From NCBI GenBank assembly GCA_035623855.1, contig DASPSQ010000004.1, positions 1,474-65,473 on the forward strand: a stretch of 64,000 nt of DNA, read 5' to 3'. Below the pieces are notes generated by a model that saw only the letters and a list, made by a program, of their open reading frames with translations, ran no database searches and was not told the origin of the DNA. The position numbers and the translations under genes are program-made. Positions 7,745-64,000 of this stretch are shown one piece after another. The stretch's first letter is position 1; each line of letters begins with the position of its first letter. The DNA is from Thermoplasmata archaeon. Its GTDB lineage: Archaea; Thermoplasmatota; Thermoplasmata; Lutacidiplasmatales; UBA184.

Positions 7745-8992
7745 TCAACCCGTAGAGGGAGGGGGACGTCGGCGTCGGTCGGGGGGTCCACCCTCCGTCG
7801 TGGAGGGGGGGCCACCTGTCGAGGGGGGTGCCGACGGCGACGGTGCCTGCGAGGGCGGGGGAGGAGCAAACTCGTCCGGGGGCGGAAGTGAAGGGACCCC
7901 GGAGGCCTTCGTACCTTTCCCGTACGACGTGACCATCGACGTCGATTCGTCCGACTCGGCCTTGATCTCGTCTTCGATCGACTTGATCTCCGTGAGGAGC
8001 TCTTCCTGCCTCGGGATTGGGCCGAGGATGTTGTCCATCGAACCGATCCGGCGCTCGAGATCGTCGAGAGTGTTCAGGCTCCGGTCCGGCACTTGCCGGC
8101 TGGTTCCCATGTACTCGCTTGCGCCCTCCATGAGGCGTGAAAACTCGAACGGGAACAGGATCTTCGTCGCCTGGCCATCGCCGACCTTCGTCACCGTGTC
8201 GAGGGAGAGCACGGTGAGGGCCTTCGCATCGAGAACTCCCGCACCGAGCGAGAGAATCCGGAGGCGTTGCGACTCCCCCTGGGCCTCGAGGATCGTCGCC
8301 ACCCGGGCCCCCTCGGCCTCCAGGATCTGGGACTGTCGCACGCCTTCCGCCTGAAGGATCCGGGACCGCTTCTGGCCCTCCGCGACGAGGATCGCGCTCC
8401 GCTTCTCCCCATCCGCCCGCAGGACCGCGGCACGCCGCTGGCGCTCGGCCGCCGTCTGCTCTTCCATCGCGGTCTTGACCGGTCCGACGGGGTCGACCTC
8501 CTTGATCTCGACCGCGTCGACACGCACTCCCCACTTGTCGGTCGCCTCGTCGAGGATATCGCGGAGCCGCGTGTTGATCCGCTCGCGGTTGTAGAGGATC
8601 TCGTCGAGCTCCATGTCCCCGATGATCGACCGCAGGGTCGTCTGGGCAAGGGCGACGGTCGCGACGTGGTAATCCTGGACCTGGAAGATCGCCTTCGGCG
8701 CGTCGACCACCTTGATGTAGATGATCGCGTCGACATTCGTCGGCGAGTTGTCCTTCGTGATCACTTCCTGCCGGGGCACTTCGAGCACCTGCGTCCGGAG
8801 GTCGATCTTCAGGACGACCGCCAGTGGGCTCACGAGGTTGAATCCCGGGTTGATCATCCGCTTGTACGAGCCGAGGAGCGTGACGATCCCCTGCTGGTAC
8901 GGCTGGATCGTGTAGATCATCCGTGTCATCAGGACGAGGATGACGATGAACGCGAGGACAATCCCAATGATCAGGAATGTGTAATCCGCCAT
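7745..8992 (-). CDS. SPFH/band-7 (stomatin-like) membrane protein with a long Pro-rich C-terminal tail
   Basis: N-terminal TM segment, then the SPFH core (QQGIVTLLGSYKRMINPGFNLV..., RSIIGDMELDEIL, ...AERQRRAAVLRAD coiled coil). Directly downstream of an NfeD gene. Confidence 0.9.
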   Translation of the reverse strand: MADYTFLIIGIVLAFIVILVLMTRMIYTIQPYQQGIVTLLGSYKRMINPGFNLVSPLAVVLKIDLRTQVLEVPRQEVITKDNSPTNVDAIIYIKVVDAPKAIFQVQDYHVATVALAQTTLRSIIGDMELDEILYNRERINTRLRDILDEATDKWGVRVDAVEIKEVDPVGPVKTAMEEQTAAERQRRAAVLRADGEKRSAILVAEGQKRSRILQAEGVRQSQILEAEGARVATILEAQGESQRLRILSLGAGVLDAKALTVLSLDTVTKVGDGQATKILFPFEFSRLMEGASEYMGTSRQVPDRSLNTLDDLERRIGSMDNILGPIPRQEELLTEIKSIEDEIKAESDESTSMVTSYGKGTKASGVPSLPPPDEFAPPPPSQAPSPSAPPSTGGPPSTTEGGPPDRRRRPPPSTG

Positions 8993-9087
8993 GTTCTACG
9001 CTCCGTTCCCCTCTCCGGTCTCCCGGACCGGCCGTACCCGCACATCCGTAGGAGATGTTACCCTTTCTCCGAGCTCCGGAGCGGGCG

Positions 9088-9558
9088 TCATGGGTTCTTC
9101 GGAGGCTCGATCGGCTCGACGGAGACCGAGACTCCCTCCCCATGGACGATTCGCACCCGGGTGCCGGCAGGGATCGCCACGTTCGAGCGGGCCGACCAGA
9201 CCTCCGAGCGGACCCGGACCTTTCCTTTGAGGGTGTTCGGCACGATGTCCGCCACGACCATTGCCTCGTCCCCCACGAGACCCCCGCTCGTCGTCGCTAA
9301 CGGTCGATGCGTCGGCGCCACCCACCGATAGTACGGAATCTCGATCATCGCCCCGACGATCGCGGCCACGATGATCAACACGGGTCCAATGGCGCTGTCG
9401 AGAAGGATGTCAGGAAGGAAGAGGTAGAGGAACCCGGCGACCAAGAGGATTGAGCCCGGGATGATCAGGAGGGCGCCCGGATGGATGAGCTCCACGGCCA
9501 GGAGGATGATTCCCGCGATGACCAGAGTGACCCCGATGGCCGGGTCGATGGGCGACAT
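9088..9558 (-). CDS. NfeD-family membrane protein (stomatin operon partner)
   Basis: Three or four TM helices followed by an OB-fold-like C-terminus (GKVRVRSEVWSARSNVAIPAGTRVRIVHGEGVSVSVEP). Classic nfeD-stomatin gene order. Confidence 0.8.
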   Translation of the reverse strand: MSPIDPAIGVTLVIAGIILLAVELIHPGALLIIPGSILLVAGFLYLFLPDILLDSAIGPVLIIVAAIVGAMIEIPYYRWVAPTHRPLATTSGGLVGDEAMVVADIVPNTLKGKVRVRSEVWSARSNVAIPAGTRVRIVHGEGVSVSVEPIEPPKNP

Positions 9559-14018: not shown

Positions 14019-14405
14019 TCAGAAGAAGTGACGGCTCACCGCGATCAGGTAGACGAAGATGATGAGCGAGAGGATGAATCCGAGCGAGATGAAATCGTGG
14101 GCGAGCCCGTAGATCGCGAGCTCGATGAACGTCACGATCAGGGCCAGGACGAGGGCCCAGAGGCGCAGCCGCCAGAGCGCAACCGCCACGCCCAGGATGA
14201 TGAGGCCGATCACCACCACGATGAGGCCGAGGACGACCCCCGAGTACCCGCCCAGCTGGGAGATCCCGATGTAGGAGCTCACTGCGACCCCGGCGAGAAC
14301 GAGGAGACCCGCCAGGAAGACCAGGAAACCGTAGATCCCGACGAGGACGGAAAGGATCGCCACTCCGAGCGGCCGGGACCGAGCCGGTGGATAGTATCCG
14401 CCCAT
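14019..14405 (-). CDS. Small four-TM membrane protein, function unknown
   Basis: 128 aa that are almost entirely hydrophobic helices. High GC3 in frame. Confidence 0.6.
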   Translation of the reverse strand: MGGYYPPARSRPLGVAILSVLVGIYGFLVFLAGLLVLAGVAVSSYIGISQLGGYSGVVLGLIVVVIGLIILGVAVALWRLRLWALVLALIVTFIELAIYGLAHDFISLGFILSLIIFVYLIAVSRHFF

Positions 14406-14435
14406 ACCGGCGCGAAATCACCGTGTCATCGGATA

Positions 14436-15176
14436 TCAAGTTTTGTCCGAGCGCGGAGTCACCGCCCCCGTTTCCGAGGGGGCAGGGGGCAAGGTGGAAG
14501 AGATCTTCCGGGGTACATACGTTGCGACGAATCCTTCCCCCATGGGTTCGAGGCCGACGAGGTCCATCTCGATTTCCTCCTCCGGTCGGTGGGTCTCGAG
14601 GCCCGAAACGACCGGCGGAGCTGTCGCGCCCCCGACCACCACCGGCGCGTAGTAGATCGTGAACCGGTCGAACAGGCGAGCGCGCAGGACGCTCGAGAGG
14701 ATCTCGGCACCTCCCTCGACCATCAGACGTCGGATCCCGAGCTCGTAGAGCAGGGGGAACAGCTCGCCGAAATCGACCTTCTCCTTCCCGACGACGATCG
14801 TGTGGACGGTGGGGGGGAACGTTCGGTGCGACCGCTCCGACGTCGCGAGGATCGTCGGAGCCGAGCCGTCCAACACCCGGGCGTTCTCGGGGGTCCGGCC
14901 GCTCGCGTCCACGATCACGCGCGTGGGGTTGCGCCCGGGAGGTTCCCCGAGAAGCTCCCAGTGCACCCGGAGGGACGGGTCGTCCTTGATGACCGTTCCG
15001 ACGCCGATGAGAATCGCATCGGCGTGCGCACGGAGCTTCTGGACCCGCACGAGATCCTCGGTCGAGGAGAATCGCGCCCGGAGGCCGCCGGCCAGGGCGA
15101 GCCGTCCATCGAGGGACGCGGCGCAGTTCACCCACACCGCCGGTCGCCGTGCCGGGAACGCACCGGGAGCCACCAT
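14436..15176 (-). CDS. 2,5-diamino-6-ribosylamino-4(3H)-pyrimidinone 5-phosphate reductase (RibD C-terminal-domain type, riboflavin biosynthesis)
   Basis: VNCAASLDGRLA..., HADAILIGVGTVIKDDPSL, RVIVD and LMVEGGAEILSSVL motifs. ATG at 15174-15176. Confidence 0.8.
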   Translation of the reverse strand: MVAPGAFPARRPAVWVNCAASLDGRLALAGGLRARFSSTEDLVRVQKLRAHADAILIGVGTVIKDDPSLRVHWELLGEPPGRNPTRVIVDASGRTPENARVLDGSAPTILATSERSHRTFPPTVHTIVVGKEKVDFGELFPLLYELGIRRLMVEGGAEILSSVLRARLFDRFTIYYAPVVVGGATAPPVVSGLETHRPEEEIEMDLVGLEPMGEGFVATYVPRKISSTLPPAPSETGAVTPRSDKT

Positions 15177-15199
15177 CGTCGAGCGTCCGCCGTGGTCCG

Positions 15200-16675
15200 T
15201 CAGCCCGCGGTCGTCAGGCGCGCGATCTCGGCCTCGAGCGCGTCGATCGGCTCCCCGGCGGCTTTCAGGTCCTCGAGGTTGATCGCGACATTCGCGAGCG
15301 CGCCTTCCGCAGCCGCCCGGAACATCGCGAGCGAGGTCACAAGGTCGCTCGCGAGCGCTGCCCGGGTCCGGGTACGGACCGCGTCGAGCCGTCCGGCGAG
15401 CTCGCGCGCCCTCCGAGCGGTCTCGAGAGGGACCTCCGCGGCATGGCGGACCGCCGCGATGTACGCGGGCTGCGCGCCGGGATCGTTCGGCCGGTCCTTG
15501 CATGCGCGTTTTGCGCTCCGGACCCCGTCATACGACGCCGCATCCTCGTCCGCGAGCTCGAGAAACCGACGGCGTCCCTCGGTAAGTCTCCGGGAGGCCT
15601 CCACGAGGTCCTCCGCAGGCTTCGTCGGGTCGATCGAGTACGCGAGGACCATCTCTCCGAGGGCGGCGGCGAGTGCGCCGACCACTCCGGCCGCGGCGCC
15701 GCCCCCGGGAGTCGGGGTCCGGGCGGCGAGCCGGGTCGAGAACGACGCGATCGATTCGTGGCCGGGGACCGAGGCGTCCACCCCCCGGACCTTCCGCTCG
15801 AGGATTTGCCCCCGGTCGAACGAATGGAGCTGAAGATAGTACTCGGCAGCGTCGAAAAGAGCGTCCTCGGGAACAAGCCCGACGACCTCGGACTCCTCGA
15901 CCGAGACCCCGTAGCGCGCCGCCTCACGGCGGACGGACTCGAGCGCCCGGTGGACGGGTGTCACTCGGTAGTCCGTGAGGTTCATCGAGACCTGCGCGCG
16001 GTTCCGTTCCTTGATCTCGAAACCGAGCGCTTTCACTTCGGGGAGGCCGCCGTCCCGGGCGCGGACCGCCCTCGCGACCTTCTTCGCGATCGCGACGTCC
16101 GGCGTGGAAAGGTAGGCATTGTACGCGATCAGGATCGGGCGCGCGCCGATCGCGACCGCGCCGGCGGTCGGGTGGATCTTTGCCTCCCCGAAGTCCGGGA
16201 GGCGGGCCGGATCGGTCGCGATCGAGTCGCGGATTCCCTCGAACTCCCCCGCGCGGACGTTGGCGAGATCGGCGCGTTCCGGCCGGCGAGCGGCGGCGGC
16301 ATAGAGGTAGACCGGGATTCCGAGATCCTTTGCGACGCGCTCCCCGAGGCGTTCGGCGAGCTTCACGGCGTCCGCCATCGTCGACGACCCGAGGGGGACG
16401 AACGGTACGACGTCCGTCGCCCCCATCCGGGGGTGCTCTCCGTGGTGCTGGGTGAGGTCGATCGTCGCGGTCGCGACCCGCATCATCCGAAGGACCGCCT
16501 CGATGAGGGCGTCCCCTTCCCCGACCAGGCTGATGACGCACCGGTGATGGTCCGCATTCCGCTCCACGTCGAGGACCGTGACATCCGGCACCTCGCGGGC
16601 CGCGGCGGCGATCCGCTCGATCTTGGCCGGGTCCCGTCCTTCGGAGAAGTTCGGCACGCATTCGAATCGGCTCAT
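15200..16675 (-). CDS. Glutamate formimidoyltransferase / formimidoyltetrahydrofolate cyclodeaminase fusion (FTCD-like)
   Basis: The N-terminus MSRFECVPNFSEGRD... is the formiminotransferase signature. The C-terminal 180 aa (TPTPGGGAAAGVVGALAAALGEMV) are cyclodeaminase-like. Confidence 0.85.
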   Translation of the reverse strand: MSRFECVPNFSEGRDPAKIERIAAAAREVPDVTVLDVERNADHHRCVISLVGEGDALIEAVLRMMRVATATIDLTQHHGEHPRMGATDVVPFVPLGSSTMADAVKLAERLGERVAKDLGIPVYLYAAAARRPERADLANVRAGEFEGIRDSIATDPARLPDFGEAKIHPTAGAVAIGARPILIAYNAYLSTPDVAIAKKVARAVRARDGGLPEVKALGFEIKERNRAQVSMNLTDYRVTPVHRALESVRREAARYGVSVEESEVVGLVPEDALFDAAEYYLQLHSFDRGQILERKVRGVDASVPGHESIASFSTRLAARTPTPGGGAAAGVVGALAAALGEMVLAYSIDPTKPAEDLVEASRRLTEGRRRFLELADEDAASYDGVRSAKRACKDRPNDPGAQPAYIAAVRHAAEVPLETARRARELAGRLDAVRTRTRAALASDLVTSLAMFRAAAEGALANVAINLEDLKAAGEPIDALEAEIARLTTAG

Positions 16676-17706
16676 GAGCTCTTGCCTCCAAACGTTTCGA
16701 GCAGGGTCTGGTGCGCGCGGGTCTCGGCCGGGGTCGCCCGCGGACCCGGCCGCTGGCGGGCCCGTCCGATCGCCGCGCGGACCCTCGCCTCCGCAAATCC
16801 GTGCTCGTCCACGAGCAGCCGGAGCACCGCTGCCTCATCGACCGGACCGAACGGTGGCGGAGGGACGTCGGTCGCGGTCGGGTGACGGAAGATTTCGGCC
16901 ACCTCCCGTGCCTCCTTCGGATCGAGGCCGACCTTCGCGAGGGTCGCGTCGAACCCCAGGTGCTGCTGGACGAGCTTGAGCGCTTTTTTCGGGCCGTACC
17001 CGCGGACTCCGTCGTTGAAGTCGGTGCCGACGATGAGGCCCAGGAGGATGAGTTCGTCCCCGTCGATCCCGAGCGACGCGAGCAGTTCGTTCCGGTCAAT
17101 GAGCTGGGCCGCCGGCGCACCTCCCCCCGCGCCCCGAGCGGCGAGACCCCGAACGAGGCGAGGGGCTCCGAACAGCAGGGTATCGTAGTCCTCCGATGCG
17201 GAGGCCCAGACCGCGCCCTGGGACGCCATGAACGCCGCTTGGGCCTCTCCCTCCCCCGGGGCCTGAATCGCCGGCACTCCCAGGGCGGCGAGGAGCCGCA
17301 TCAGCTCCTCGGCCATCGGCCGAGTCAGTCGGGAAGTTTGGGCCGCACGGCGCCGTGCGGTCTCGAGATCCCCGGCGGCGAGGGCGGCCTGCCATTGCTC
17401 CTCGGCCTTCTCCTTCGCCTCGATCCGTTGCCGGATCGTGCCGGCCTTACGTTCCGGGGGCCTCCCATCGAACACCCAGAGGGGGAGGATCCCCTCTCGA
17501 AGGAGCGAGGTCGTACGGTAGAAAACCCCGACCAGGTGGCTCGTGACCCGGCCCTCGGCGTCTGTGAAGAGCTGGCCGTCCCGCTGGCGGATCGTCGCGA
17601 GGAACTGGTACGCGGCGTTGAACCCGTCGACCGCCAGCGTGCGGCCCGAGAGCGCCTCCCACGGGAGCTGCTGCGCGGTGACGATATCCTTCAGCGGCAG
17701 CCCCAC
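16672..17706 (-). CDS. fen: Flap endonuclease 1
   Basis: LAVDGFNAAYQFL, TSHLVGVFYRT, PLWVFDG, GEGEAQAA and SEDYDTLLFG motifs. GTG start at 17704-17706; the stop overlaps the FTCD ATG (ATGA). Confidence 0.92.
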   Translation of the reverse strand: MGLPLKDIVTAQQLPWEALSGRTLAVDGFNAAYQFLATIRQRDGQLFTDAEGRVTSHLVGVFYRTTSLLREGILPLWVFDGRPPERKAGTIRQRIEAKEKAEEQWQAALAAGDLETARRRAAQTSRLTRPMAEELMRLLAALGVPAIQAPGEGEAQAAFMASQGAVWASASEDYDTLLFGAPRLVRGLAARGAGGGAPAAQLIDRNELLASLGIDGDELILLGLIVGTDFNDGVRGYGPKKALKLVQQHLGFDATLAKVGLDPKEAREVAEIFRHPTATDVPPPPFGPVDEAAVLRLLVDEHGFAEARVRAAIGRARQRPGPRATPAETRAHQTLLETFGGKSS

Positions 17707-17726
17707 GGCGCTCGTCGAGCGGCGCG

Positions 17727-17734
17727 AAGTATTT
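17727..17734 (-). promoter_or_regulatory. TATA-like element for fen (AAATACTT on the minus strand)
   Basis: About 26 nt upstream of the fen start codon. Confidence 0.3.
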
Positions 17735-17784
17735 GCGGTTGTGGGCCCGGCGGCCTCGCACGAGATAGGCTATAGTCTCTCGAA

Positions 17785-18673: not shown

Positions 18674-18841
18674 TCAGCCGAAGGTTTCCGTGTACGTCAG
18701 GAGGTAGAAGGCGCCGATCACCATCGCCGCGAGCAGGGTGAAGATCGCGACGGGGTTCGAGCTGAAGGCGACGACCGTCACCCCGATGAGCGCGGCCGGA
18801 AGCGCGATGAGCAGGAGGAACGTCAGCCAGCGCCCGTCCAT
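18674..18841 (-). CDS. 55-aa two-TM membrane protein (below the ORF-track length cut-off)
   Basis: Hand translation: MDGRWLTFLLLIALPAALIGVTVVAFSSNPVAIFTLLAAMVIGAFYLLTYTETFG*. GC-rich third positions. Lies 92 nt downstream of the FtsZ-like gene on the same strand. Confidence 0.4.
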   Translation of the reverse strand: MDGRWLTFLLLIALPAALIGVTVVAFSSNPVAIFTLLAAMVIGAFYLLTYTETFG

Positions 18842-18933
18842 CGGTTCTCTCGAACGTGCCCCTCAGATAAGCCTGACCGGGGCCTCTGAAGAAGACGGGG
18901 GGCCAAGGGGGACAAGGCCCCCCGTCGAGAGAG

Positions 18934-19857
18934 TTACTGGGCGGTCGGGGGCCGCGGGGGGTTCTCCACCTCGAACGTGAGCTCGACTTCCCCCTCGTCG
19001 GCGTGGGCCGCTGGTATCAGGGGCGTTGGGGCCGGAGGGGCCGAAGGAACCGGCGGCACGAGGTCGATCGGAGTCGCCTCCACCAGGGGGATCTGATTCA
19101 TCGGCCCCGCGGCGATCGCCTCGCTTGCTTCCGTCGCCGAGAGCATCGCTTCGACGGGCGCGAGAAAGGAGTGTTCGATGTGCTCTTCGATCAAGGTCGC
19201 CCAGTGCTGGCTGACGCGAGAGAACGCCGTACGGGCCTGGGTCTCGACCAAGCTCTCGTTGTCGAGGGTCCGCAGGGTCGCGAGCCCCCGCTCCTTTTTC
19301 TCGACGAACGATTCGACGAAGTGAAGACGTGCGATCGCCCGCTCCGCGAGAGACCGCCGCTCGCCCTCGCATCGGAACGGTTTGATCACGAACGCGCTCA
19401 CGACCTCCGCGTTCCGCGATGCGACCTCGAGGACGTACGGGAGCGCGCCGCTCCCGGCACCCCCACCGAGACTGCCCACAACGATCACGAACGTCGCGCC
19501 CTGGAAGATCCGCTGGAGCGCCGGCTCCGCGGCGCGTGCGAGAAGCCCTCCGACAAAGGGGGATCCACCCGTGTCCGTCTCCGCCCCCGTGTCGGGACCG
19601 AGATAGACCCGGCGGTCGAAGTCGTCGAATCCCTGGACCTTGGGGTCACAGTTGATCGCCACTGTTTCGAGGTGGCGGACGTGTTTGCGTGCGATCTCCC
19701 TTCCAATCCGGATCGCCCCCCCGCCCACCGCGGCCAGGACGAATCGAACGTCCTGGCCGAGCCGCAGGTGGGTCTCCCACCCGGTATCGTCGGTTGCGCC
19801 GTATCCCGGCGCGGAGTCTCGCTCGCTCACGGTTCGCTCGGCCTCGTAGGTCCCCAC
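18934..19857 (-). CDS. FtsZ/tubulin-superfamily GTPase lacking the C-terminal (T7-loop) domain
   Basis: AAVGGGAIRIGREIA (T1-like), VVGSLGGGAGSGALPYV (tubulin signature GGGxGxG), SAFVIKPFRCEGERR (FtsZ KPFxFEG) and TLDNESLVE. After helix H7 the sequence becomes a Pro-rich tail. Confidence 0.7.
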   Translation of the reverse strand: MGTYEAERTVSERDSAPGYGATDDTGWETHLRLGQDVRFVLAAVGGGAIRIGREIARKHVRHLETVAINCDPKVQGFDDFDRRVYLGPDTGAETDTGGSPFVGGLLARAAEPALQRIFQGATFVIVVGSLGGGAGSGALPYVLEVASRNAEVVSAFVIKPFRCEGERRSLAERAIARLHFVESFVEKKERGLATLRTLDNESLVETQARTAFSRVSQHWATLIEEHIEHSFLAPVEAMLSATEASEAIAAGPMNQIPLVEATPIDLVPPVPSAPPAPTPLIPAAHADEGEVELTFEVENPPRPPTAQ

Positions 19858-19896
19858 AGCCCACCCCCTCGATCGCGGTCTCCAACCGTCCGGGCG

Positions 19897-20424
19897 TTAG
19901 CGCCCGACGACCCCCTTGCGCTCCAGGTCCTTGCCGCTCTCCTGGAGAGCTCCGACCTGGCTTCGGGTCTCCGCCGCTTCGCGCACCGTCGCACGAGCCC
20001 GCTGGACGAGCTCGTTGACCTTCAGCTCCATCTCGCCGCGGCGGACGATTTCGGCGAGGATGTCCCTCACCGGTCGGCCGTTCGCGACGTGGCGGGCGTA
20101 GGTCTCGAAAGCGGCGTACTCCTCCGGTCGCAGACGTACGGGGACCTCTACAAGGCCCTCGGCGTCCACGGGAGGCGCCGGCGCGGTCGACATCGCCCGG
20201 GAGCGGAGGAACGCGTGCAGCGCGGCCCGCATGAGCTCCGACCGGGTCGAGAACTCGCCGTTCGTCACGAACGAGTCGACCAGGCGGAGCTCCCTGCGGT
20301 TGCACCGTAGCGCGATGCGCGCATCCTCCGGCTCCTCCGGAGCGGCCTCGGGCGCGCGATTGCGCTTCGGATTCCGCTTCGGAACGTTGTCGAACACAGT
20401 CAGCCAAACCGATGTAGATTCCAT
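19897..20424 (-). CDS. Two-domain ribbon-helix-helix (CopG/Arc/MetJ-like) DNA-binding protein
   Basis: IALRCNRRELRLVDSFV...STRSELMRAALHAFL and VPVRLRPEEYAAFETYA...RPVRDILAEIVRRG both fit the beta-alpha-alpha RHH pattern. Start may be the in-frame GTG at 20395-20397, given TTTAAGTA at 20427-20434. Confidence 0.6.
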   Translation of the reverse strand: MESTSVWLTVFDNVPKRNPKRNRAPEAAPEEPEDARIALRCNRRELRLVDSFVTNGEFSTRSELMRAALHAFLRSRAMSTAPAPPVDAEGLVEVPVRLRPEEYAAFETYARHVANGRPVRDILAEIVRRGEMELKVNELVQRARATVREAAETRSQVGALQESGKDLERKGVVGR

Positions 20425-20522
20425 CTACTTAAACACGAGCACCGTCCGTCGAGAATGAAACTGCTCGCGCTCATTTACGCAGGTTTCTGACGTGTCGAAC
20501 ACGGCATGAAAGATGTCGAACA
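20388..20522. promoter_or_regulatory. Three copies of TGTCGAACA (inverted repeat TGT-CGA-ACA), candidate RHH operator
   Basis: Exact 9-mers at 20388-20396, 20493-20501 and 20514-20522. The two upstream copies are 21 bp apart. The proximal copy overlaps the alternative GTG start/TSS of the RHH gene. Confidence 0.3.
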
Positions 20523-20870
20523 AGCTGCGACGCGTGGACTCCCAAAGTATAACAGGAAAAAATTCTGCGTCGGAAGTTCCGGCCCGTTCCGTGGCCAGAG
20601 AATTTCGCGTGTCCGCGGGCAAGATCGCACGGACCCGGCGTCAGAACGGTTCTCGGATCTCGAGAGGAAGCTCCGCGCAGAAATCGGACCGGAGCGGATT
20701 CATTCTATGCAGTTTCTGTATCAGAATCTCTCCGAGAGCCACAATGCGTTAACCCAATCCGGACCGCAGTGACGTCCTGCGTATTGAGGGGCAAGGGTCG
20801 TCCCGGCCGATAGGTACGTCGGGAAGGAGTTGGCGGACGAATCGACCCACGGTATCATTCTAGGGTCGCT

Positions 20871-28275: not shown

Positions 28276-29499
28276 ATGTCGGATAACTCTTCGCAGTGCT
28301 CGCGTCGAGCCAGGTTCGCCGGGCGGGCCCGGGGTCGATGGAAGAAGCGTCCGTCCCGGGGTGTCTCGGACGTCGTCGCAACCATCATCCTCCTCGCCAT
28401 GACCGTCGTCCTCTTTTCTGCGATTTTCGCGTTCGTGACTTCCTTCCCGTCTCCTCCCGCGCAAACTGCGAACCAGTTTCAAGCGTCCCTGTTCTTCACA
28501 GGCAACAACGCGGCGGGAGTCAACATCACCCACCTCGCGGGCCCTCAGGTGGCCGGAAACGGGATGATCTACGTCAAGTCCGCGGGAGGCCCCACCCAGT
28601 GCTTCTCCGGAGTCCCCGTACCGGTCTCGGCCGGCATCAGCACTCCCGTATGGAACTTGGGGGAGACCTGGCACATGCCGTTCGCGAGCTACCCGGGGGG
28701 AGTTTGCCCTGCGGGCACGGTTGACACCTCGAAACCCGACAACCTGACGATCTACGTATTCAGCGGGTCGACGTTGCTCTTCAGCGTCGTTCTCCCCGGC
28801 CAGCCATTCCTCTCGCCTCCTACCATCCTCTCCACCTGGACCGCGCCGTCGCCGATCACGTCGGGAGCGGCGTTCCGCGTCTATGCAACCCTCGCGGGGA
28901 ACCTCGCCGGTCACAAGGCGTTCGTCAACCTTGCGGGGATCACGCACTACGGCGGGTCCACTTCGACCGTCGCGATGTGGTACAATAGCTCGCAGTTGAA
29001 CTGGCAGTTCAACGTCACGGGGCCGAACACTTCCGCCGTAACGCCCGGGACGTACTATGGGGTTGTCAACGTGACGGGGTCCAGCGGGCTCGCGGCCAGC
29101 GCCATCGTCACGATCACGGTCTCGCCCTCGTTCTCGGCGACGGTCACCCCCGTTCCCTCGTCGTTCAAGTCGGCCACTCCCGTGAACTTCATCATCGCGC
29201 TCACCAATTTCGGTTCGACGACCGGCACGACCGTCAACGTCAGTCTCTTTGTCAACGGGACGACCGCGTGGACGACGTATGCCACGTTCCCCCTCGTCTC
29301 CAATGGAAAGGGCGGTTGGTGGATCACCCCGACGGCGGGAGCCACGCTGAGCGCCTACCAGACGATTTCGTGGTCACCGTACTTGACCTCTCCGAGCGCC
29401 GCGTCCGCGTACACCATCACCGTATCCATCACACTCAAGAACTCGATCTTCGCGCCGACGGGGTACTACACCTTCACGACGACCGGCTCGATCTCTTGA
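28276..29499 (+). CDS. Large archaeal type IV pilin-like / pilin-N-domain surface protein
   Basis: ...KKRPSRG/VSDVVATIILLAMTVVLFSAIFAFV class III signal. 350-aa beta-rich Ser/Thr-rich ectodomain with many N-x-S/T sequons. Confidence 0.7.
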   Translation: MSDNSSQCSRRARFAGRARGRWKKRPSRGVSDVVATIILLAMTVVLFSAIFAFVTSFPSPPAQTANQFQASLFFTGNNAAGVNITHLAGPQVAGNGMIYVKSAGGPTQCFSGVPVPVSAGISTPVWNLGETWHMPFASYPGGVCPAGTVDTSKPDNLTIYVFSGSTLLFSVVLPGQPFLSPPTILSTWTAPSPITSGAAFRVYATLAGNLAGHKAFVNLAGITHYGGSTSTVAMWYNSSQLNWQFNVTGPNTSAVTPGTYYGVVNVTGSSGLAASAIVTITVSPSFSATVTPVPSSFKSATPVNFIIALTNFGSTTGTTVNVSLFVNGTTAWTTYATFPLVSNGKGGWWITPTAGATLSAYQTISWSPYLTSPSAASAYTITVSITLKNSIFAPTGYYTFTTTGSIS

Positions 29500-40031: not shown

Positions 40032-43000
40032 CTACTGGGTCACCGCGTTACAGAAGGGGCAGATGAGGTACTCCGCCGGAATCTCCTTGCCACAGCTCGG
40101 GCACGCCTTCAGGTTCGCTGCGGGCGTCCCCGGAGGGGTCCCGGCGCCGGGTGCTCCTGGCATCGTCGACGGGGCCCGGGATTCGGCCGAGCCGCCGGTC
40201 GGAAGCGTCGCACCGCACACATTGCAGAACCGGGCATTCGGAGCGTAGGCCGTCCCGCACTTCGGGCACGTGAGCGGGGCGGGAGCAGCGGACGGCCCGG
40301 CGGGAGGAGTCGGTGGCGCGCCCGGACCCCCAGGCGGCGCGGCGGCTCCCGGAGGCGGAAGTCCTTCGCCCGTCAGGGTCGTCTCGATCACCGTTTCCGT
40401 GGGCGCGGGCGGCGCGGTCATCCCCGCGCGGGACGTTCCCGTTCCCTGCTGGAGCTTCCACTGGCTGAAGGAGACGTAGGACGGCTGGCGCTTCCACCAG
40501 TCCCAGAACGCCCCCTCGCTGTAGTTGTCGCCGAGCTCGCGCTTCCCCTCGGCGCGGTACTTCTCCGTGAAGTCCGCGTACCCCTGGCGCTCCGGATCGG
40601 CCTCCGCTTCGCCCGGCTTACCGAGGAGGACGGCGGCGCATTCGGGGCAGACCTTGGAGTCGGCGGGGATCGTGGACGCGCATCGACTGCACCGGATGAG
40701 ATCGTGCTCGAACTCGGCACCGCACTTCGGACAGACGGTCGCATCCTCGGGGATCAGGTTCCCGCACTCCCCGCACTCGACGAGCTTTCCGGCGGCTTGG
40801 CGGCGCGCGACAAGGAGGAAGGCGAGAAGGCCCGCGACGATGACCGCCGCGATGGCGAGCCAGACCCAGACGGGCAGCCCAAGGACCTTCTGGAGGAAGA
40901 AGTTGGGCGCGGGTCCCGGCACCGAGTAAATCCCGGGGATCGTGTACGGCGCCGACGTCACTCCATAGGCCGTCGCCGTCACGGAAAGCGTGTACGAGGT
41001 TCCCGGGGAGAGGACCGAGTTCAAGGAGCTCCACGTCACGGTGAACTGCGTGTTCGGTGTGGCGGTGCCGGATCCCACGAGGATGCTCGCACCCCCCGAG
41101 GTCGGCGTCGCGTAGACGTCCACGGTCGCCGGCTGGGTACCGTTGTACGCCACGACGCCCGACGTGTAGTACGTCTGACCGAGATTGAGCGTCGTGGAGG
41201 ACGGTGCGGTCGCCGAGACGATCTTGATCACGAACGCGTAGCCGAGGAACGTCTGGGCCGGGGCGAAGTCCGGCCGGCCGCAGCCGGGCGTGCCGCTCGC
41301 GACACCGGTCGGGTACGGCGACGCGGACCACCCGAACCAGTGAGTCGGTACGGTGTTGCCCGGAACCGAGACGGCCACGTGGTAGTCTCCGAGGAAGATG
41401 CCGTCGGGAAGGCTCAGCCAGGTCAGCTCCGTTGACGCGACGAGGAGGGACGTGACGCCCTTCGAATTCGCCAATCCATACCCGGTCGTCCCCCGCTCGG
41501 CGTCGAGGTACTCGACGTACCCCCACATCGCGGGGTCGGTGGACGCAATGTCGTTGAGCCGTGAGGTGGTTTGGTTGTTGGACTGGAGCGAGTTGTACGC
41601 ATAGTACATCGAGAGCTGGGCCCCGCTGATCGCCGTGTTTCCGGCGCCCCCGGTGACGTTGAGTTCCCCCCACCGGTAGAAGTTGACCTGACTCGTGTTA
41701 TCGGGCAGAATCGCGGAGGTTCCGAACGCATCCGGCAGCGGGTTCGGGGTCGATAGGTTCGCGAGGTACCCCACCGAGTCATTCGAGAACGTCAGCTTGT
41801 TCGAGAACCACGGGTACTCCGCTGCGTAGAGCTGGTAGATCGACGAACCGACCGGGTTCCAGTTGAGGCCGAGCAGTGTGTCCACGGTCGTGAGTTCGGC
41901 GCCGGCTCCCGAGACGTGCATGTCAAAGTCCGGACCGGTGGTGTTGAGCAGGAACGTGGTGTTCGTCACGTTGACCGGTGGACCGTTCACGTTGGTGTAA
42001 TTGAGGAAAATCTGTTCGGGGGTGGAAAAGCTTCCCGTCGCATTGATGTAGTTCAGCATCCCGCCGGCCGTGATCGCGTCCAGAAGGGGGGCCGAGAGAG
42101 GCACGATCTCCTCCCCTCGCGTGCCGTTGGCGAAGAACAGGGAGGGACTCAGCGCGTAGTCGGTCCCGTAGTACTGTACGCCCAACGTGGCGGTCGTAAC
42201 ACCGATCGCGTTGGTGTCGGTGTAATTGACCAGCACGTAACCGCTGGCTGCGGAGGCACTGGGGTACAGCCAGTCCTGCATGAGCGCCTCGGGGGTGTTG
42301 GGCCCGATCAGGCCGGTGATCGAGTTCCCGACCAGGAGGAGCGGCCCCCCCACGAGCGGCGCGGGACGGGTGTACCCGAACGTGAGCAGGTTGTCCGCGT
42401 AGATTTCGGTGACTCGACTTCCAAAGAGGTTGAGTTTGGCGCCACTCAGAGTGTAGATCGTCGGGGCCCACTGCGTGTCGCCCCAGATGCTCGCGGGCTC
42501 ATACGGTCCGATACTGGGGACCGCGGGGTTCCCAGTGACGACGGAGTTGTTCAGGGTGACGACGGCCTTGGAACCATTGACATAGAACCATCCCGGGAAC
42601 TCGAACGAGGAGTCCACGGCCGTGAGAACGCCCGTGACCGTGAGGTTGAGCTTTGCGTAGGGGTTGAGGATCCCGACATCGGTCGTGACGGTCGCGTTGT
42701 ACAGGACCACCGAGCCCTGATCCACAAAGTGGTAGATGTGGCTCAAACGCTGCTCCGCCGTGCCCGTGTCCCCTACGAATTGGACGAACGAGAGGGTGAC
42801 GTTCCGTACGAACAGGATCCCGCCGGCATCGATGGTGATGTTCCCGCCTTGGAAGTAGGTGAAGCCGCCCGAAGTGGGCTGAATGGTGTAGTTTTCGCCC
42901 GCCCCGACGACGAGGTCCCCGTGGGTCGGTGGGACCGCGGACGGCGTCCGGGCGGACGCATCCGAAGCGTATGCGGGGTGGGTGGACATCGACGGCAGGG

Positions 43001-43139
43001 GAGTCAGTGCGACGTACAGGCTGGTCGTGGCGAGGAGAGCCACAAGTGCAACGAGGGAGATGCCCAGCGCCTGCGCTCGGAAATTTGGCCTTCGCGTCGT
43101 CCCTCCGACGCGGGAGGAATAGCCCAAGGAACAGTTCAC
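40032..43139 (-). CDS. Large (1035 aa) sequon-rich surface protein with N-terminal anchor, C-proximal TM and a cytoplasmic tail carrying four zinc ribbons
   Basis: N-terminal RRPNFRAQALGISLVALVALLATTSLYVAL. About 700-aa Thr/Ser/Asn-rich ectodomain. TM VWVWLAIAAVIVAGLLAFLLVA followed by RRQAAGK. Then CGECGN..CPKCG, CSRCAS..CPECA, CPKCGT..CNVCG and CPSCGK..CPFCN. Confidence 0.75.
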   Translation of the reverse strand: MNCSLGYSSRVGGTTRRPNFRAQALGISLVALVALLATTSLYVALTPLPSMSTHPAYASDASARTPSAVPPTHGDLVVGAGENYTIQPTSGGFTYFQGGNITIDAGGILFVRNVTLSFVQFVGDTGTAEQRLSHIYHFVDQGSVVLYNATVTTDVGILNPYAKLNLTVTGVLTAVDSSFEFPGWFYVNGSKAVVTLNNSVVTGNPAVPSIGPYEPASIWGDTQWAPTIYTLSGAKLNLFGSRVTEIYADNLLTFGYTRPAPLVGGPLLLVGNSITGLIGPNTPEALMQDWLYPSASAASGYVLVNYTDTNAIGVTTATLGVQYYGTDYALSPSLFFANGTRGEEIVPLSAPLLDAITAGGMLNYINATGSFSTPEQIFLNYTNVNGPPVNVTNTTFLLNTTGPDFDMHVSGAGAELTTVDTLLGLNWNPVGSSIYQLYAAEYPWFSNKLTFSNDSVGYLANLSTPNPLPDAFGTSAILPDNTSQVNFYRWGELNVTGGAGNTAISGAQLSMYYAYNSLQSNNQTTSRLNDIASTDPAMWGYVEYLDAERGTTGYGLANSKGVTSLLVASTELTWLSLPDGIFLGDYHVAVSVPGNTVPTHWFGWSASPYPTGVASGTPGCGRPDFAPAQTFLGYAFVIKIVSATAPSSTTLNLGQTYYTSGVVAYNGTQPATVDVYATPTSGGASILVGSGTATPNTQFTVTWSSLNSVLSPGTSYTLSVTATAYGVTSAPYTIPGIYSVPGPAPNFFLQKVLGLPVWVWLAIAAVIVAGLLAFLLVARRQAAGKLVECGECGNLIPEDATVCPKCGAEFEHDLIRCSRCASTIPADSKVCPECAAVLLGKPGEAEADPERQGYADFTEKYRAEGKRELGDNYSEGAFWDWWKRQPSYVSFSQWKLQQGTGTSRAGMTAPPAPTETVIETTLTGEGLPPPGAAAPPGGPGAPPTPPAGPSAAPAPLTCPKCGTAYAPNARFCNVCGATLPTGGSAESRAPSTMPGAPGAGTPPGTPAANLKACPSCGKEIPAEYLICPFCNAVTQ

Positions 43140-63306: not shown

Positions 63307-64000
63307 TTAGCGGCCGAGAGAGAATCCACTCCAGTCGGCGACGACGTCCTCGACTGCGTCGGCGAATCGCGTCACGAGCCCCCCGCCCATCCCGTTCGCC
63401 GGGCCGTAGAGGACCCGGTCCATCAGCGCCCGCGGGGGTGCGACCCGGACCGTCTTTCGGGAGGGGACCCCGGTGAGCTGCGCGAGCTCCTCGATGGCGG
63501 CCTCTCGGTCGGCGAGGGCGTCGACGAGCCCGAGTTTCAGCGCCTGGACCCCTGTCCAGAACTCCCCGGTGGCGAGGGAGCGGATCTCTTCCACCGGGCG
63601 CTTTCGTTCTCGGGCGACGAGCCCGATGAACTCCTCGTACCCTTCGTGGGCGATCGCCTGGAGCTTCGTCCGCTCCTCGTCGGTCAGGGGTCGGTATCCC
63701 TGGTAGGCGTCCTTGTGGACGCCTTCGTGGAGAAGCTCGACGGAGATGCCGAGGCGGCGGATGAGTTCGCGCAGTGCAAAGTGCGCATAGACGACACCGA
63801 TCGACCCGACCTCCGAGCCGGGGTAGGCGTAGACGCGCCGCGCGCCGAGCGCGGCCATGTACGCCCCCGACGCACCGATCGAGCCAATCGATGCATAGAC
63901 CGGTTTCACTTGGTCGAGCCGTTTCACGGCGAGGTAGAAGTCCATCGAGGCGACCGCCTCACCTCCGCCGCTCGAAATGTCCAACAGCACGCCCCGGACT
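63307..64000 (-). CDS. sppA: Signal peptide peptidase SppA (S49 family), N-terminus beyond the window edge
   Basis: LLDISSGGGE, PVYASIGSIGASGAYMAA, GSIGV, ...ALKLGLVDAL. The reading frame stays open to the window end. Confidence 0.8.
   Translation of the reverse strand, partial: VRGVLLDISSGGGEAVASMDFYLAVKRLDQVKPVYASIGSIGASGAYMAALGARRVYAYPGSEVGSIGVVYAHFALRELIRRLGISVELLHEGVHKDAYQGYRPLTDEERTKLQAIAHEGYEEFIGLVARERKRPVEEIRSLATGEFWTGVQALKLGLVDALADREAAIEELAQLTGVPSRKTVRVAPPRALMDRVLYGPANGMGGGLVTRFADAVEDVVADWSGFSLGR

Follow-up and report, generated by a model that had tools for sequence, protein, structure and literature searches.

What might an archaeal cell do with only the front half of FtsZ? FtsZ-based division in archaea is poorly understood and few of its regulators are known. 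The question is raised by a short gene in a stretch of 64,000 nucleotides (here called the window) from contig DASPSQ010000004.1 of GenBank assembly GCA_035623855.1 (positions 1,474 to 65,473 of the forward strand), a soil-dwelling Thermoplasmata archaeon placed by GTDB in UBA184 of the Lutacidiplasmatales. The gene encodes a 307-aa protein that consists of the FtsZ N-terminal nucleotide-binding domain and helix H7, without the T7 loop and the C-terminal subdomain; we refer to it as half-FtsZ. It lies between the gene of a ribbon-helix-helix (RHH) regulator and that of a microprotein with two transmembrane (TM) helices. The half-FtsZ family is conserved, was not found described in the literature, and belongs to a circuit related to the cdrS-ftsZ2 operon. 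A first-pass annotation, made from the letters alone, had read the gene as a C-terminally truncated FtsZ paralog behind a CdrS-like regulator. Locus (L) and protein (P) numbers below are our own.

The domain content of the protein was consistent across methods. Pfam Tubulin (PF00091) matched residues 60-178 with 50.5 bits against a cut-off of 33, and FtsZ_C (PF12327) did not match the 307-aa protein, just as the first-pass annotation had expected. The TIGR00065 ftsZ model gave 70.9 bits, with only its N-terminal part matched (profile positions 23-161 of 353); this score lies far under the cut-off of 295.2 and, together with the lack of T7 and FtsZ_C, led us to reject canonical FtsZ as an assignment. 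All 49 matches of a PDB sequence search (E <= 0.01) were FtsZ, every one of them ending near query residue 180. When a family profile was compared by hhalign with 18 full-length Thermoplasmata FtsZ proteins, residues 24-228 were placed onto 14-207 of 357; the match to canonical Thermoplasmata FtsZ2 had a probability of 98.6% (E = 1e-15) and ended within H7. An AlphaFold2 model shows strands S1-S6 with their helices (core predicted local distance difference test score, pLDDT, 80-96), a single long helix at 212-249 and disorder from about residue 250 onward. The best PDB matches of this model in Foldseek were all FtsZ, over about 200 columns (E = 2e-11), and a T7-like motif (NxDxxD/E) was found in none of 70 orthologs. 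CetZ was likewise rejected as an assignment, as there is no C-terminal domain and no CetZ or tubulin chain occurs among the 49 PDB matches or the top 50 Foldseek matches. Membership in the FtsZ/tubulin superfamily and the reading of the product as a GTPase domain running into a Pro-rich tail, both put forward in the first-pass annotation, were thus borne out by Pfam, PDB, hhalign, AlphaFold2 and the proposed structural comparison.

Like full-length FtsZ (TIGR00065; M. jannaschii FtsZ1, PDB 1W58), half-FtsZ has a Rossmann-like domain, recognizable though altered loops T1-T6, H7 and a disordered linker ending in a short conserved C-terminal peptide. Unlike full-length FtsZ, it ends after H7 and thereby lacks T7, H8 and the C-terminal subdomain. 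Residues were mapped on M. jannaschii FtsZ1 (364/364 identical to PDB 1W58) and on E. coli FtsZ. All four motifs quoted earlier (GGGAIRIG, GSLGGGAGSGALP, KPFRCEGERR and LDNESL) were located in the product. In the family, T1 reads GGGxxR where FtsZ has GGGGxN, T2 is NCD, T3 is DTGGSP, T4 is GGGAGSG (signature GGGTG[ST]G), T5 is KPFRCEGERR and T6 is LDNE. H7 carries an invariant HW at the position of the guanine-contacting ND pair of FtsZ. The T1 Arg, the T4 variant and the HW pair distinguish the family from full-length FtsZ, as do an N-terminal extension of about 35 aa and an insertion of 10 residues between H5 and S6. The loops are largely retained among the 70 orthologs (T1 in 65, T2 in 70, T4 in 62 and T6 in 67), and GTP binding by half-FtsZ is plausible. 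Further conserved elements are specific to the family, namely YEAER...DR near the N-terminus, LRLGQDVRF, the H5-S6 insertion and SFLAPxEA after H7. Deep-branching members (P0131, P0132 and P0125 among them) have a T4 of GGEAGTE, GGETGSS or GGRSGTG and have lost T3, with length, tail peptide and both partner genes retained. At least there, function presumably cannot rest on canonical GTP binding, which may thus be dispensable for whatever is conserved.

The C-terminal peptide, on which the first-pass annotation did not remark, comes after a Pro-rich, variable linker (about 40 residues) and has the consensus E-[VA]-E-L-T-F-E-[VI]. E292, L293, F295 and E296 are invariant in the family alignment, and the motif [DEGT]x[ED]hxhEh occurs in at least 60 of the 70 orthologs. 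In the window protein the peptide reads EVELTFEV, an alternating hydrophobic and acidic pattern typical of a beta-strand. Placed behind a variable linker like the C-terminal tail of FtsZ, it may be a docking motif. The tail of archaeal FtsZ is known to bind SepF by means of a 'GID' motif (PMC8178401). MAFFT sets EVELTFEV against the last beta-strand, S10, of full-length FtsZ (ELRVTVVATG, TVRVLLVITG); chance may account for this alignment, or the peptide may be what remained when the C-terminal subdomain was lost through an internal deletion.

When each GTDB species was represented by a single genome, the family was detected in 74 species with one locus per assembly, nearly all of them metagenome-assembled genomes (MAGs) of Thermoplasmata. 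Carriers include Candidatus Lutacidiplasma silvani and UBA184, and the members are 35% to 74% identical to the window protein. The length is steady (median 307 aa, range 285-333 aa). At 90% identity there are at least 452 protein clusters, nearly all with 304-316 aa, and a search of 1.84 billion representatives yielded about 26 family representatives at 50% clustering. Past the family, scores drop sharply to ordinary FtsZ, which match positions 38-185 alone. None of the members is specifically named, the source labels being 'hypothetical protein' or 'Tubulin/FtsZ family, GTPase domain'. A literature search on the family and the three-gene module found no paper describing them, and the papers on Lutacidiplasmatales and Thermoplasmatota do not mention division genes, supplements included. 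A 2023 survey of the superfamily dropped sequences with an alignment coverage below 60%. Proteins consisting of the Tubulin domain only are easily lost to such filters in FtsZ surveys, and can nevertheless form large conserved families.

The two neighbors of half-FtsZ are conserved along with it. In 71 of the 74 loci half-FtsZ is immediately preceded by the RHH gene, the three exceptions being contig edges, and the TM gene lies downstream in 69, so that the triad proposed in the first-pass annotation is indeed shared by related genomes. The RHH family comprises 458 clusters, about as many as the half-FtsZ family. All three open reading frames (ORFs) are on the minus strand, which had not been stated before, and the earlier spacings of 39 nt (RHH to half-FtsZ) and 92 nt (half-FtsZ to TM gene) are exact. 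Purifying selection acts on each of them, with ratios of nonsynonymous to synonymous substitution rates (dN/dS) of 0.12-0.31 for half-FtsZ, 0.16-0.40 for the RHH gene and 0.12-0.5 for the TM gene (0.12-0.5 overall); by this measure all three are real genes. The genes downstream of the module in closer relatives are PAC2, FEN1, FTCD and RibD_C, and while this downstream flank is fixed, the upstream flank is variable. The triad is also intact amid different flanking genes in L008 and L009. P0136, with about 36% identity, keeps both partners between NDK, Sua5 and an M24 peptidase on one side and RNA polymerase subunits on the other. The three-gene module is single-copy and vertically inherited in Lutacidiplasmatales/UBA184 and relatives. 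In three very long long-read MAG contigs (L064, L077 and L095) the half-FtsZ gene and several of its neighbors appear split or frameshifted; since many neighboring genes are fragmented in the same way, these breaks are most likely assembly errors and not pseudogenes.

The gap between the RHH and half-FtsZ genes is 37-40 nt in the called loci, and in L008 the two genes overlap by 23 nt. As no TATA box was found in the 39-nt gap of the window, co-transcription of the two genes is suggested. The TM gene differs in this respect. A TATA-like motif is present at -33 to -28 of the TM gene in 64 of the 74 loci, compared with 0.9% of random control windows, and its distance of about 30 nt from the ATG points to a leaderless transcript of its own. 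Between half-FtsZ and the TM gene, the window has a GC-rich hairpin that may serve as a terminator or stabilizer. Hairpins of differing sequence are found at this position in many loci but are modestly supported by statistics (median z = -1.1, z < -2 in 20 of 74); we therefore dropped the idea of a conserved intergenic terminator hairpin.

The 55-aa protein, found where the first-pass annotation had placed it, matched no family in Pfam, PADLOC or PHROG. Its two TM helices are joined by a short SSNP turn, and the C-terminal YLLTYTE is conserved. Ten residues (G3, P15, F26, N29, P30, G43, Y46, L47, Y50 and E52) are invariant even when the distant L008 copy is included.

The regulator was previously given 175 aa from the ATG at 20424, a length that did not hold. 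It most likely starts at the GTG at 20397 and has 166 aa, because most homologs have this length and begin with MFDN or VFDN, and because the distance from the conserved TTTAAGTA box is 36 nt to the GTG and only about 7 nt to the ATG. The claim that two RHH modules are encoded 39 nt upstream of half-FtsZ is correct as to the gap and supported as to module 1, while module 2 is recognized solely from its pattern and its collinearity. The protein closes with a long C-terminal helix whose end is an invariant DLERKGVVGR. Several signals point to the same fold. Pfam RHH_1 (14 bits) and RHH_8 (14.8 bits) are both under their cut-offs, the CdrS model NF058555 matches residues 36-74 (21 bits, cut-off 100, E = 2.5e-4) and a PHROG 'transcriptional repressor' matches at 3.8e-5. 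One homolog has a precomputed PF01402 match, and many are named 'Arc/MetJ-type RHH' in their source. Module 1 aligns at E = 7e-6 with the RHH_1-positive proteins encoded upstream of full-length ftsZ2, to whose 104-aa representatives both modules align collinearly over the full length (69 columns, E = 6e-5). An internal repeat was considered and rejected, as it was non-significant in hhalign. In the comparison of the window with L001, the rate of synonymous substitution (dS) of the RHH gene is 0.22, far below the 1.09 of half-FtsZ and the 1.13 of the TM gene; nucleotide-level constraint or a recent exchange of the segment are possible causes.

The DNA upstream of the RHH gene is itself conserved, across about 60 species. 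Block conservation was assessed on 61 aligned upstream regions and paired sites were counted over 64 loci; the positions of all elements are given in Table 1. The conserved blocks are split by unconserved sequence, which marks them as regulatory DNA and led us to reject a small ORF running across them. The spacing of the TTTAAGTA box from the GTG is constant in nearly all loci, and the box is probably the promoter of an RHH/half-FtsZ operon, in which case a very short leader is implied. A second TATA-like promoter element may be present in the GTTATAC box further upstream. Exact matches to TGTTCGACA number three in the 64-kb window, all at the RHH locus, against a chance expectation of 0.34. 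The GTTCGAC pair at -125 and -104 was found in 63 of 64 loci, compared with a background of 0.2 per region. A third copy overlies the RHH start, where GTGTTCGACAA is identical in 64 loci. Here the first four RHH codons are identical in nucleotides across loci and the next 20 or so vary, so the conservation is probably at the level of DNA. These TGTTCGACA sites may well be operators for the RHH protein, with the third placed such that it would repress.

The arrangement resembles the cdrS-ftsZ2 operon (Darnell et al. 2020; Liao et al. 2021), whose synteny is widespread in archaea (PMC7439475; PMC8178401), in that an RHH gene stands just upstream of, and is apparently co-transcribed with, a gene of the FtsZ family. 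The -125 and -104 sites are also within the range reported for the CdrS motif, 41-110 nt upstream of the transcription start site. The CdrS-like logic proposed in the first-pass annotation is supported by the sub-threshold CdrS match, the homology of module 1 and the reported archaeal synteny. Unlike in cdrS-ftsZ2, the FtsZ partner lacks T7, the C-terminal subdomain and the GID motif, the other flanking genes differ, and a conserved TM microprotein is added. The regulator, with tandem modules and a long helix in 166 aa, differs from CdrS, a single RHH of about 60 aa, and given 21 of the 100 bits required, we rejected it as a CdrS equivalog. CdpC, the new haloarchaeal Z-ring anchor, was discarded as a relative, since it is an unrelated zinc-ribbon protein.

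Other Thermoplasmata encode full-length FtsZ proteins (345-370 aa with Tubulin and FtsZ_C), preceded by RHH_1 proteins of 86-104 aa in a conserved neighborhood of SpoU, TruA, AAA_18, CDP-OH transferase and PriL. No housekeeping gene is common to these canonical loci and the half-FtsZ loci. The 104-aa RHH_1 proteins (L012:154-468, L089:3607-3921 and L096:1292-1606) have two modules as well, VTIRLP...TISDVIRTAIDRFVE followed by ITVELP...SVDDAIRNAVREYIRRR, and the CdrS-type partner of FtsZ2 in Thermoplasmata may therefore be a single-chain pseudo-dimer. P0161 (461 aa) joins an N-terminal RHH-like segment, ILNVRIPSSLASQLDEAYKKRGFKNKSEFVRTSIRDAI, to a full-length FtsZ, either as a natural fusion or as a merge in gene calling.

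Half-FtsZ is not the only FtsZ protein reduced to the N-terminal domain. Six others of 268-303 aa were found (P0151, P0157, P0171, P0174, P0185 and P0235); P0185, of 273 aa, is from Methanomassiliicoccales (L006:5506-6822), and others are at L010 and L011. An RHH-like gene lies just upstream of P0185, P0174 and P0151. Those of P0185 and P0174 encode two modules in 120 and 131 aa, and that of P0151 is cut by the contig edge, so that the second module alone is seen. P0185 and the P0151/P0171 group thus share with half-FtsZ a length of about 270-300 aa, a disordered tail and an RHH-like gene upstream. In contrast to half-FtsZ, the short proteins lack EVELTFEV and are closer to canonical FtsZ (Pfam Tubulin 111-145 bits for P0174 and P0185 and 65-66 for P0151 and P0171, versus 50 for half-FtsZ), and at L006 no TM microprotein gene follows. 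P0185 even keeps a vestigial T7/H8, LQIE-TDVKEML against INVDFADVKAVM. In a neighbor-joining (NJ) tree of the GTPase domain (200 bootstraps, with MjFtsZ1 as the labeled reference), the half-FtsZ family is monophyletic with 100% support on a long branch, P0151/P0171 are its sister group at 58%, and deeper nodes have less than 25%. NCBIfam holds no separate models for FtsZ1 and FtsZ2.

Membership in the FtsZl families, which the first-pass annotation had offered as a possibility, did not hold up. [quoted passage not shown] Half-FtsZ has 307 aa, scores 14.7 bits with PF13809 against a cut-off of 27, and has RHH, TM, PAC2 and FEN1 neighbors. FtsZl2 is proteobacterial, keeps T6, T7 and H7 and has an additional alpha/beta C-terminal region of about 300 aa (PMC2875224), whereas our family is archaeal and lacks both T7 and the C-terminal region. 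What is shared with FtsZl1 and FtsZl2 is a divergent position in the FtsZ/tubulin superfamily and, with FtsZl1, the lack of recognizable polymerization elements past the N-terminal core.

How, then, could such a protein work? Our leading explanation, which we hold tentatively and with slightly less than even confidence, is that half-FtsZ derives from the FtsZ2 lineage and acts as a regulator that is tethered to the membrane and binds nucleotide without polymerizing, perhaps capping filaments, while its expression is autoregulated as with CdrS. The RHH protein would bind the TGTTCGACA sites and autoregulate the operon in the manner of CdrS or of a type II antitoxin. Half-FtsZ would bind nucleotide but, because the T7-bearing face is absent, could neither hydrolyze it nor polymerize head-to-tail by itself. 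Its tail peptide would dock it to a membrane partner, most simply the microprotein and alternatively SepF, and it would regulate division or membrane remodeling rather than form filaments. In the most specific version, the intact nucleotide face would bind the T7 face at the end of a full-length FtsZ filament and cap it, which would explain the tight control of expression. Precedents come from the laboratory. Oliva et al. (2004) reportedly found that the N-terminal domain of FtsZ, when isolated, folds and binds GTP yet is without GTPase activity, and FtsZ mutants with a defective bottom face reportedly cap filaments at sub-stoichiometric levels (Redick et al. 2005; Du et al. 2018). Half-FtsZ likewise combines a nucleotide-bearing top face with the lack of a functional bottom (T7) face. 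Unlike laboratory cappers, it is natural, highly diverged, conserved and equipped with its own regulator, and its top face would have to be compatible with a full-length FtsZ.

Several observations weigh against this explanation. The capping version presumes a full-length FtsZ in the same genomes. The 64-kb window contains no other tubulin-family ORF, and the three identified assemblies with a canonical cdrS-ftsZ2 (DASWLL01, JBFOMW01 and JBAROJ01) are outside the set of the 74 species. The NJ tree gives no resolved origin from FtsZ2, its sister group at 58% being all that it offers. The replacement of ND by HW in H7 and of Asn by Arg in T1 makes the nucleotide specificity uncertain, and T4 is degenerate (GGEAGTE, GGETGSS) in 4 of the 70 orthologs, all of them deep-branching. 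The tail ends in ...EVELTFEVENPPRPPTAQ, without the 'GID' motif for SepF binding. The TM gene has a separate promoter, so that adjacency alone ties it to the other two genes. As for the regulator, hhalign found no significant similarity between modules 1 and 2, and its AlphaFold2 model is of low confidence (pLDDT 56), though it does show two pairs of helices and, at the C-terminus, a helix of some 50 residues.

Half-FtsZ might instead polymerize after all, or form defined oligomers, through a non-canonical interface, and work as a minimal cytoskeletal or membrane-remodeling filament anchored by the TM microprotein. We consider this unlikely. Candidate interfaces are the N-terminal extension, the H5-S6 insertion and the acidic tail peptide, which might enter the nucleotide pocket of a neighbor and replace T7. 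The strong conservation of YEAER...DR, LRLGQDVRF, the 10-aa insertion and SFLAPxEA is in line with this, as are the invariant acidic residues of the tail, and Makarova and Koonin made the same suggestion for FtsZl1, which also lacks counterparts of T6-H7 and the C-terminal domain (PMC2875224). However, no structural or sequence element resembling a second polymerization face was found in half-FtsZ, and disorder is predicted for the whole chain past residue 250. On their own, the N-terminal domains of canonical FtsZ are not known to polymerize. A different history, to which we give an equally low probability, is that half-FtsZ has replaced FtsZ2. The cdrS-ftsZ2 pair would have been remodeled, leaving genomes with FtsZ1 and half-FtsZ but no full-length FtsZ2, and half-FtsZ would tether or recruit at the division site without providing constriction; this overlaps with our leading explanation and departs from it as to how the gene arose and which genes the genomes contain. 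The two types of operon have homologous RHH proteins that align collinearly, P0185 with its RHH gene and vestigial T7/H8 looks like an intermediate, and the three canonical assemblies named above are not among the 74. Of the five canonical cdrS-ftsZ2 loci sampled, four have a GC content of 55-60%, outside the 63-73% of the half-FtsZ loci, which hints at mutual exclusivity without being proof. The fifth canonical locus, L012, lies within the family range at 66%, though, and the flanks are wholly different (SpoU/TruA/PriL versus PAC2/FEN1/FTCD). Nor does the NJ phylogeny have the resolution to support a replacement.

The same gene order could also be read as a toxin-antitoxin or defense-like module, in which the C-terminal helix of an RHH antitoxin neutralizes a half-FtsZ toxin that poisons FtsZ polymerization. 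The layout is that of a type II system: the RHH gene leads, operator repeats cover the promoter from which it is read, and the effector gene comes directly after it. RHH proteins next to short FtsZ genes have longer helical C-terminal extensions than the 104-aa FtsZ2-linked ones, and a capping half-FtsZ would in principle be toxic. Yet the module is single-copy, occupies a fixed housekeeping neighborhood and is vertical across an order-level lineage, its third gene is conserved as well, PADLOC gave no match and the window has no mobile-element genes nearby, and we accordingly regard this reading as very improbable. A known defense or phage module was rejected, since PADLOC did not match and PHROG offered no explanation by a phage system. 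That half-FtsZ is a decaying, functionless remnant of FtsZ might be argued from the loss of half of the ancestral protein and from the degenerate T4 of a few members, but this is effectively refuted by the dN/dS of 0.12-0.31, the constant length and many invariant residues over 74 species, and the conservation of the promoter and both partner genes, and we give it hardly any credence.

If a membrane-tethered regulator is indeed encoded here, it may represent a novel type of division regulator. We know of no natural FtsZ end-capping protein in archaea. It is conceivable, though speculative and in our estimate rather unlikely, that natural 'bottom-less' FtsZ forms (this family, that of Methanomassiliicoccales and the other short forms) are membrane-tethered cappers or brakes of FtsZ, each paired with an autoregulating tandem RHH protein whose extended C-terminal helix perhaps restrains the capper, and with the microprotein being a new receptor for the tail peptide. 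If true, archaeal cell division would be under an antitoxin-like control circuit that is fixed in the chromosome. With no more than three small proteins and a DNA motif, it becomes testable whether FtsZ dynamics can be controlled by an N-terminal domain alone, how FtsZ-type tails find membrane receptors other than SepF, and how CdrS-type RHH proteins recognize DNA.

Table 1. Features of the half-FtsZ module; positions are those of the window, and distances marked with a minus sign are counted from the GTG at 20397.
Feature	Positions	Strand	Details
GTTATAC box	20547..20553	minus	at about -156, about 30 nt 5' of O1; at least 90% conserved in 61 loci
Operator-like O1, TGTTCGACA	20514..20522	minus	at -125, 21 bp 5' of O2
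Operator-like O2, TGTTCGACA	20493..20501	minus	at -104; inside block TGTTCGACACGTCA (-105), at least 90% conserved
TATA-like box, TTTAAGTA	20426..20433	minus	-36 to -29
Tandem RHH-like regulator gene	19897..20397	minus	166 aa from GTG 20397; alternative ATG 20424 would give 175 aa
Operator-like O3, TGTTCGACA	20388..20396	minus	over the RHH GTG start codon
RHH module 1			residues ~26-69; beta 'RIALRC', helix, helix 'TRSELMRAALHAFL'
RHH-like module 2			residues ~84-125; beta 'VPVRLR', helix, helix
Shine-Dalgarno-like, purine-rich GAGGGGGTGG	19861..19870	minus	4 nt 5' of the half-FtsZ GTG, within the 39-nt gap
Short FtsZ-like gene (half-FtsZ)	18934..19857	minus	307 aa, GTG start
Half-FtsZ protein layout			N-terminal extension ~35 aa; nucleotide-binding domain S1-S6 with T1-T6; H7 ~212-249; variable Pro-rich linker; conserved C-terminal peptide
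Codons of C-terminal peptide EVELTFEV	18967..18990	minus	residues 290-297
GC-rich hairpin, GACGGGGGGCC / GGCCCCCCGTC	18894..18926	minus	11-bp stem, then TTCTTC; directly 3' of the half-FtsZ stop codon
TATA-like box, CTTATCTG	18864..18871	minus	30 nt 5' of the TM gene ATG
Membrane microprotein gene	18674..18841	minus	55 aa, two TM helices

The remainder of the window, with a GC content of about 66%, mostly contains housekeeping and metabolic genes, such as those for FEN1, a PAC2 proteasome chaperone, PriS, Kae1, archaeosine TGT and Tyw1, together with NADH dehydrogenase subunits and archaeal pilins. Several related loci (upstream regions of L001-L005) carry archaeal type IV pilin (Pilin_N) genes on the upstream side of the RHH gene, at a distance of a few kb; the one in the window is at 28276-29499 (+), separated from the RHH gene by a major facilitator superfamily (MFS) transporter gene and an AsnC-type helix-turn-helix gene. 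Plus-strand ORFs of up to 601 aa run opposite to real genes (19003-20310, 14028-15833 and 16711-17775), the first of them, with 435 aa, opposite to the half-FtsZ and RHH genes. The high GC content gives rise to these ORFs, and they are not genes. A search of the window against Rfam matched no family. ARAGORN called an 87-nt tRNA-Pro(CGG) at 63796-63882 (minus), inside an ORF of 227 aa with high GC at third codon positions (63307-63990, minus), so that one of the two must be spurious unless the tRNA bears an intron. A 1035-aa protein (40032-43139, minus) has several zinc-ribbon and double-zinc-ribbon (DZR) matches near its C-terminus and is otherwise without recognized domains; DZR domains are also found in the haloarchaeal division regulator CdrL. 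Finally, adjacent genes at 7745-9558 (minus) encode an SPFH/Band 7 protein, a scaffold of membrane microdomains, and its partner NfeD.

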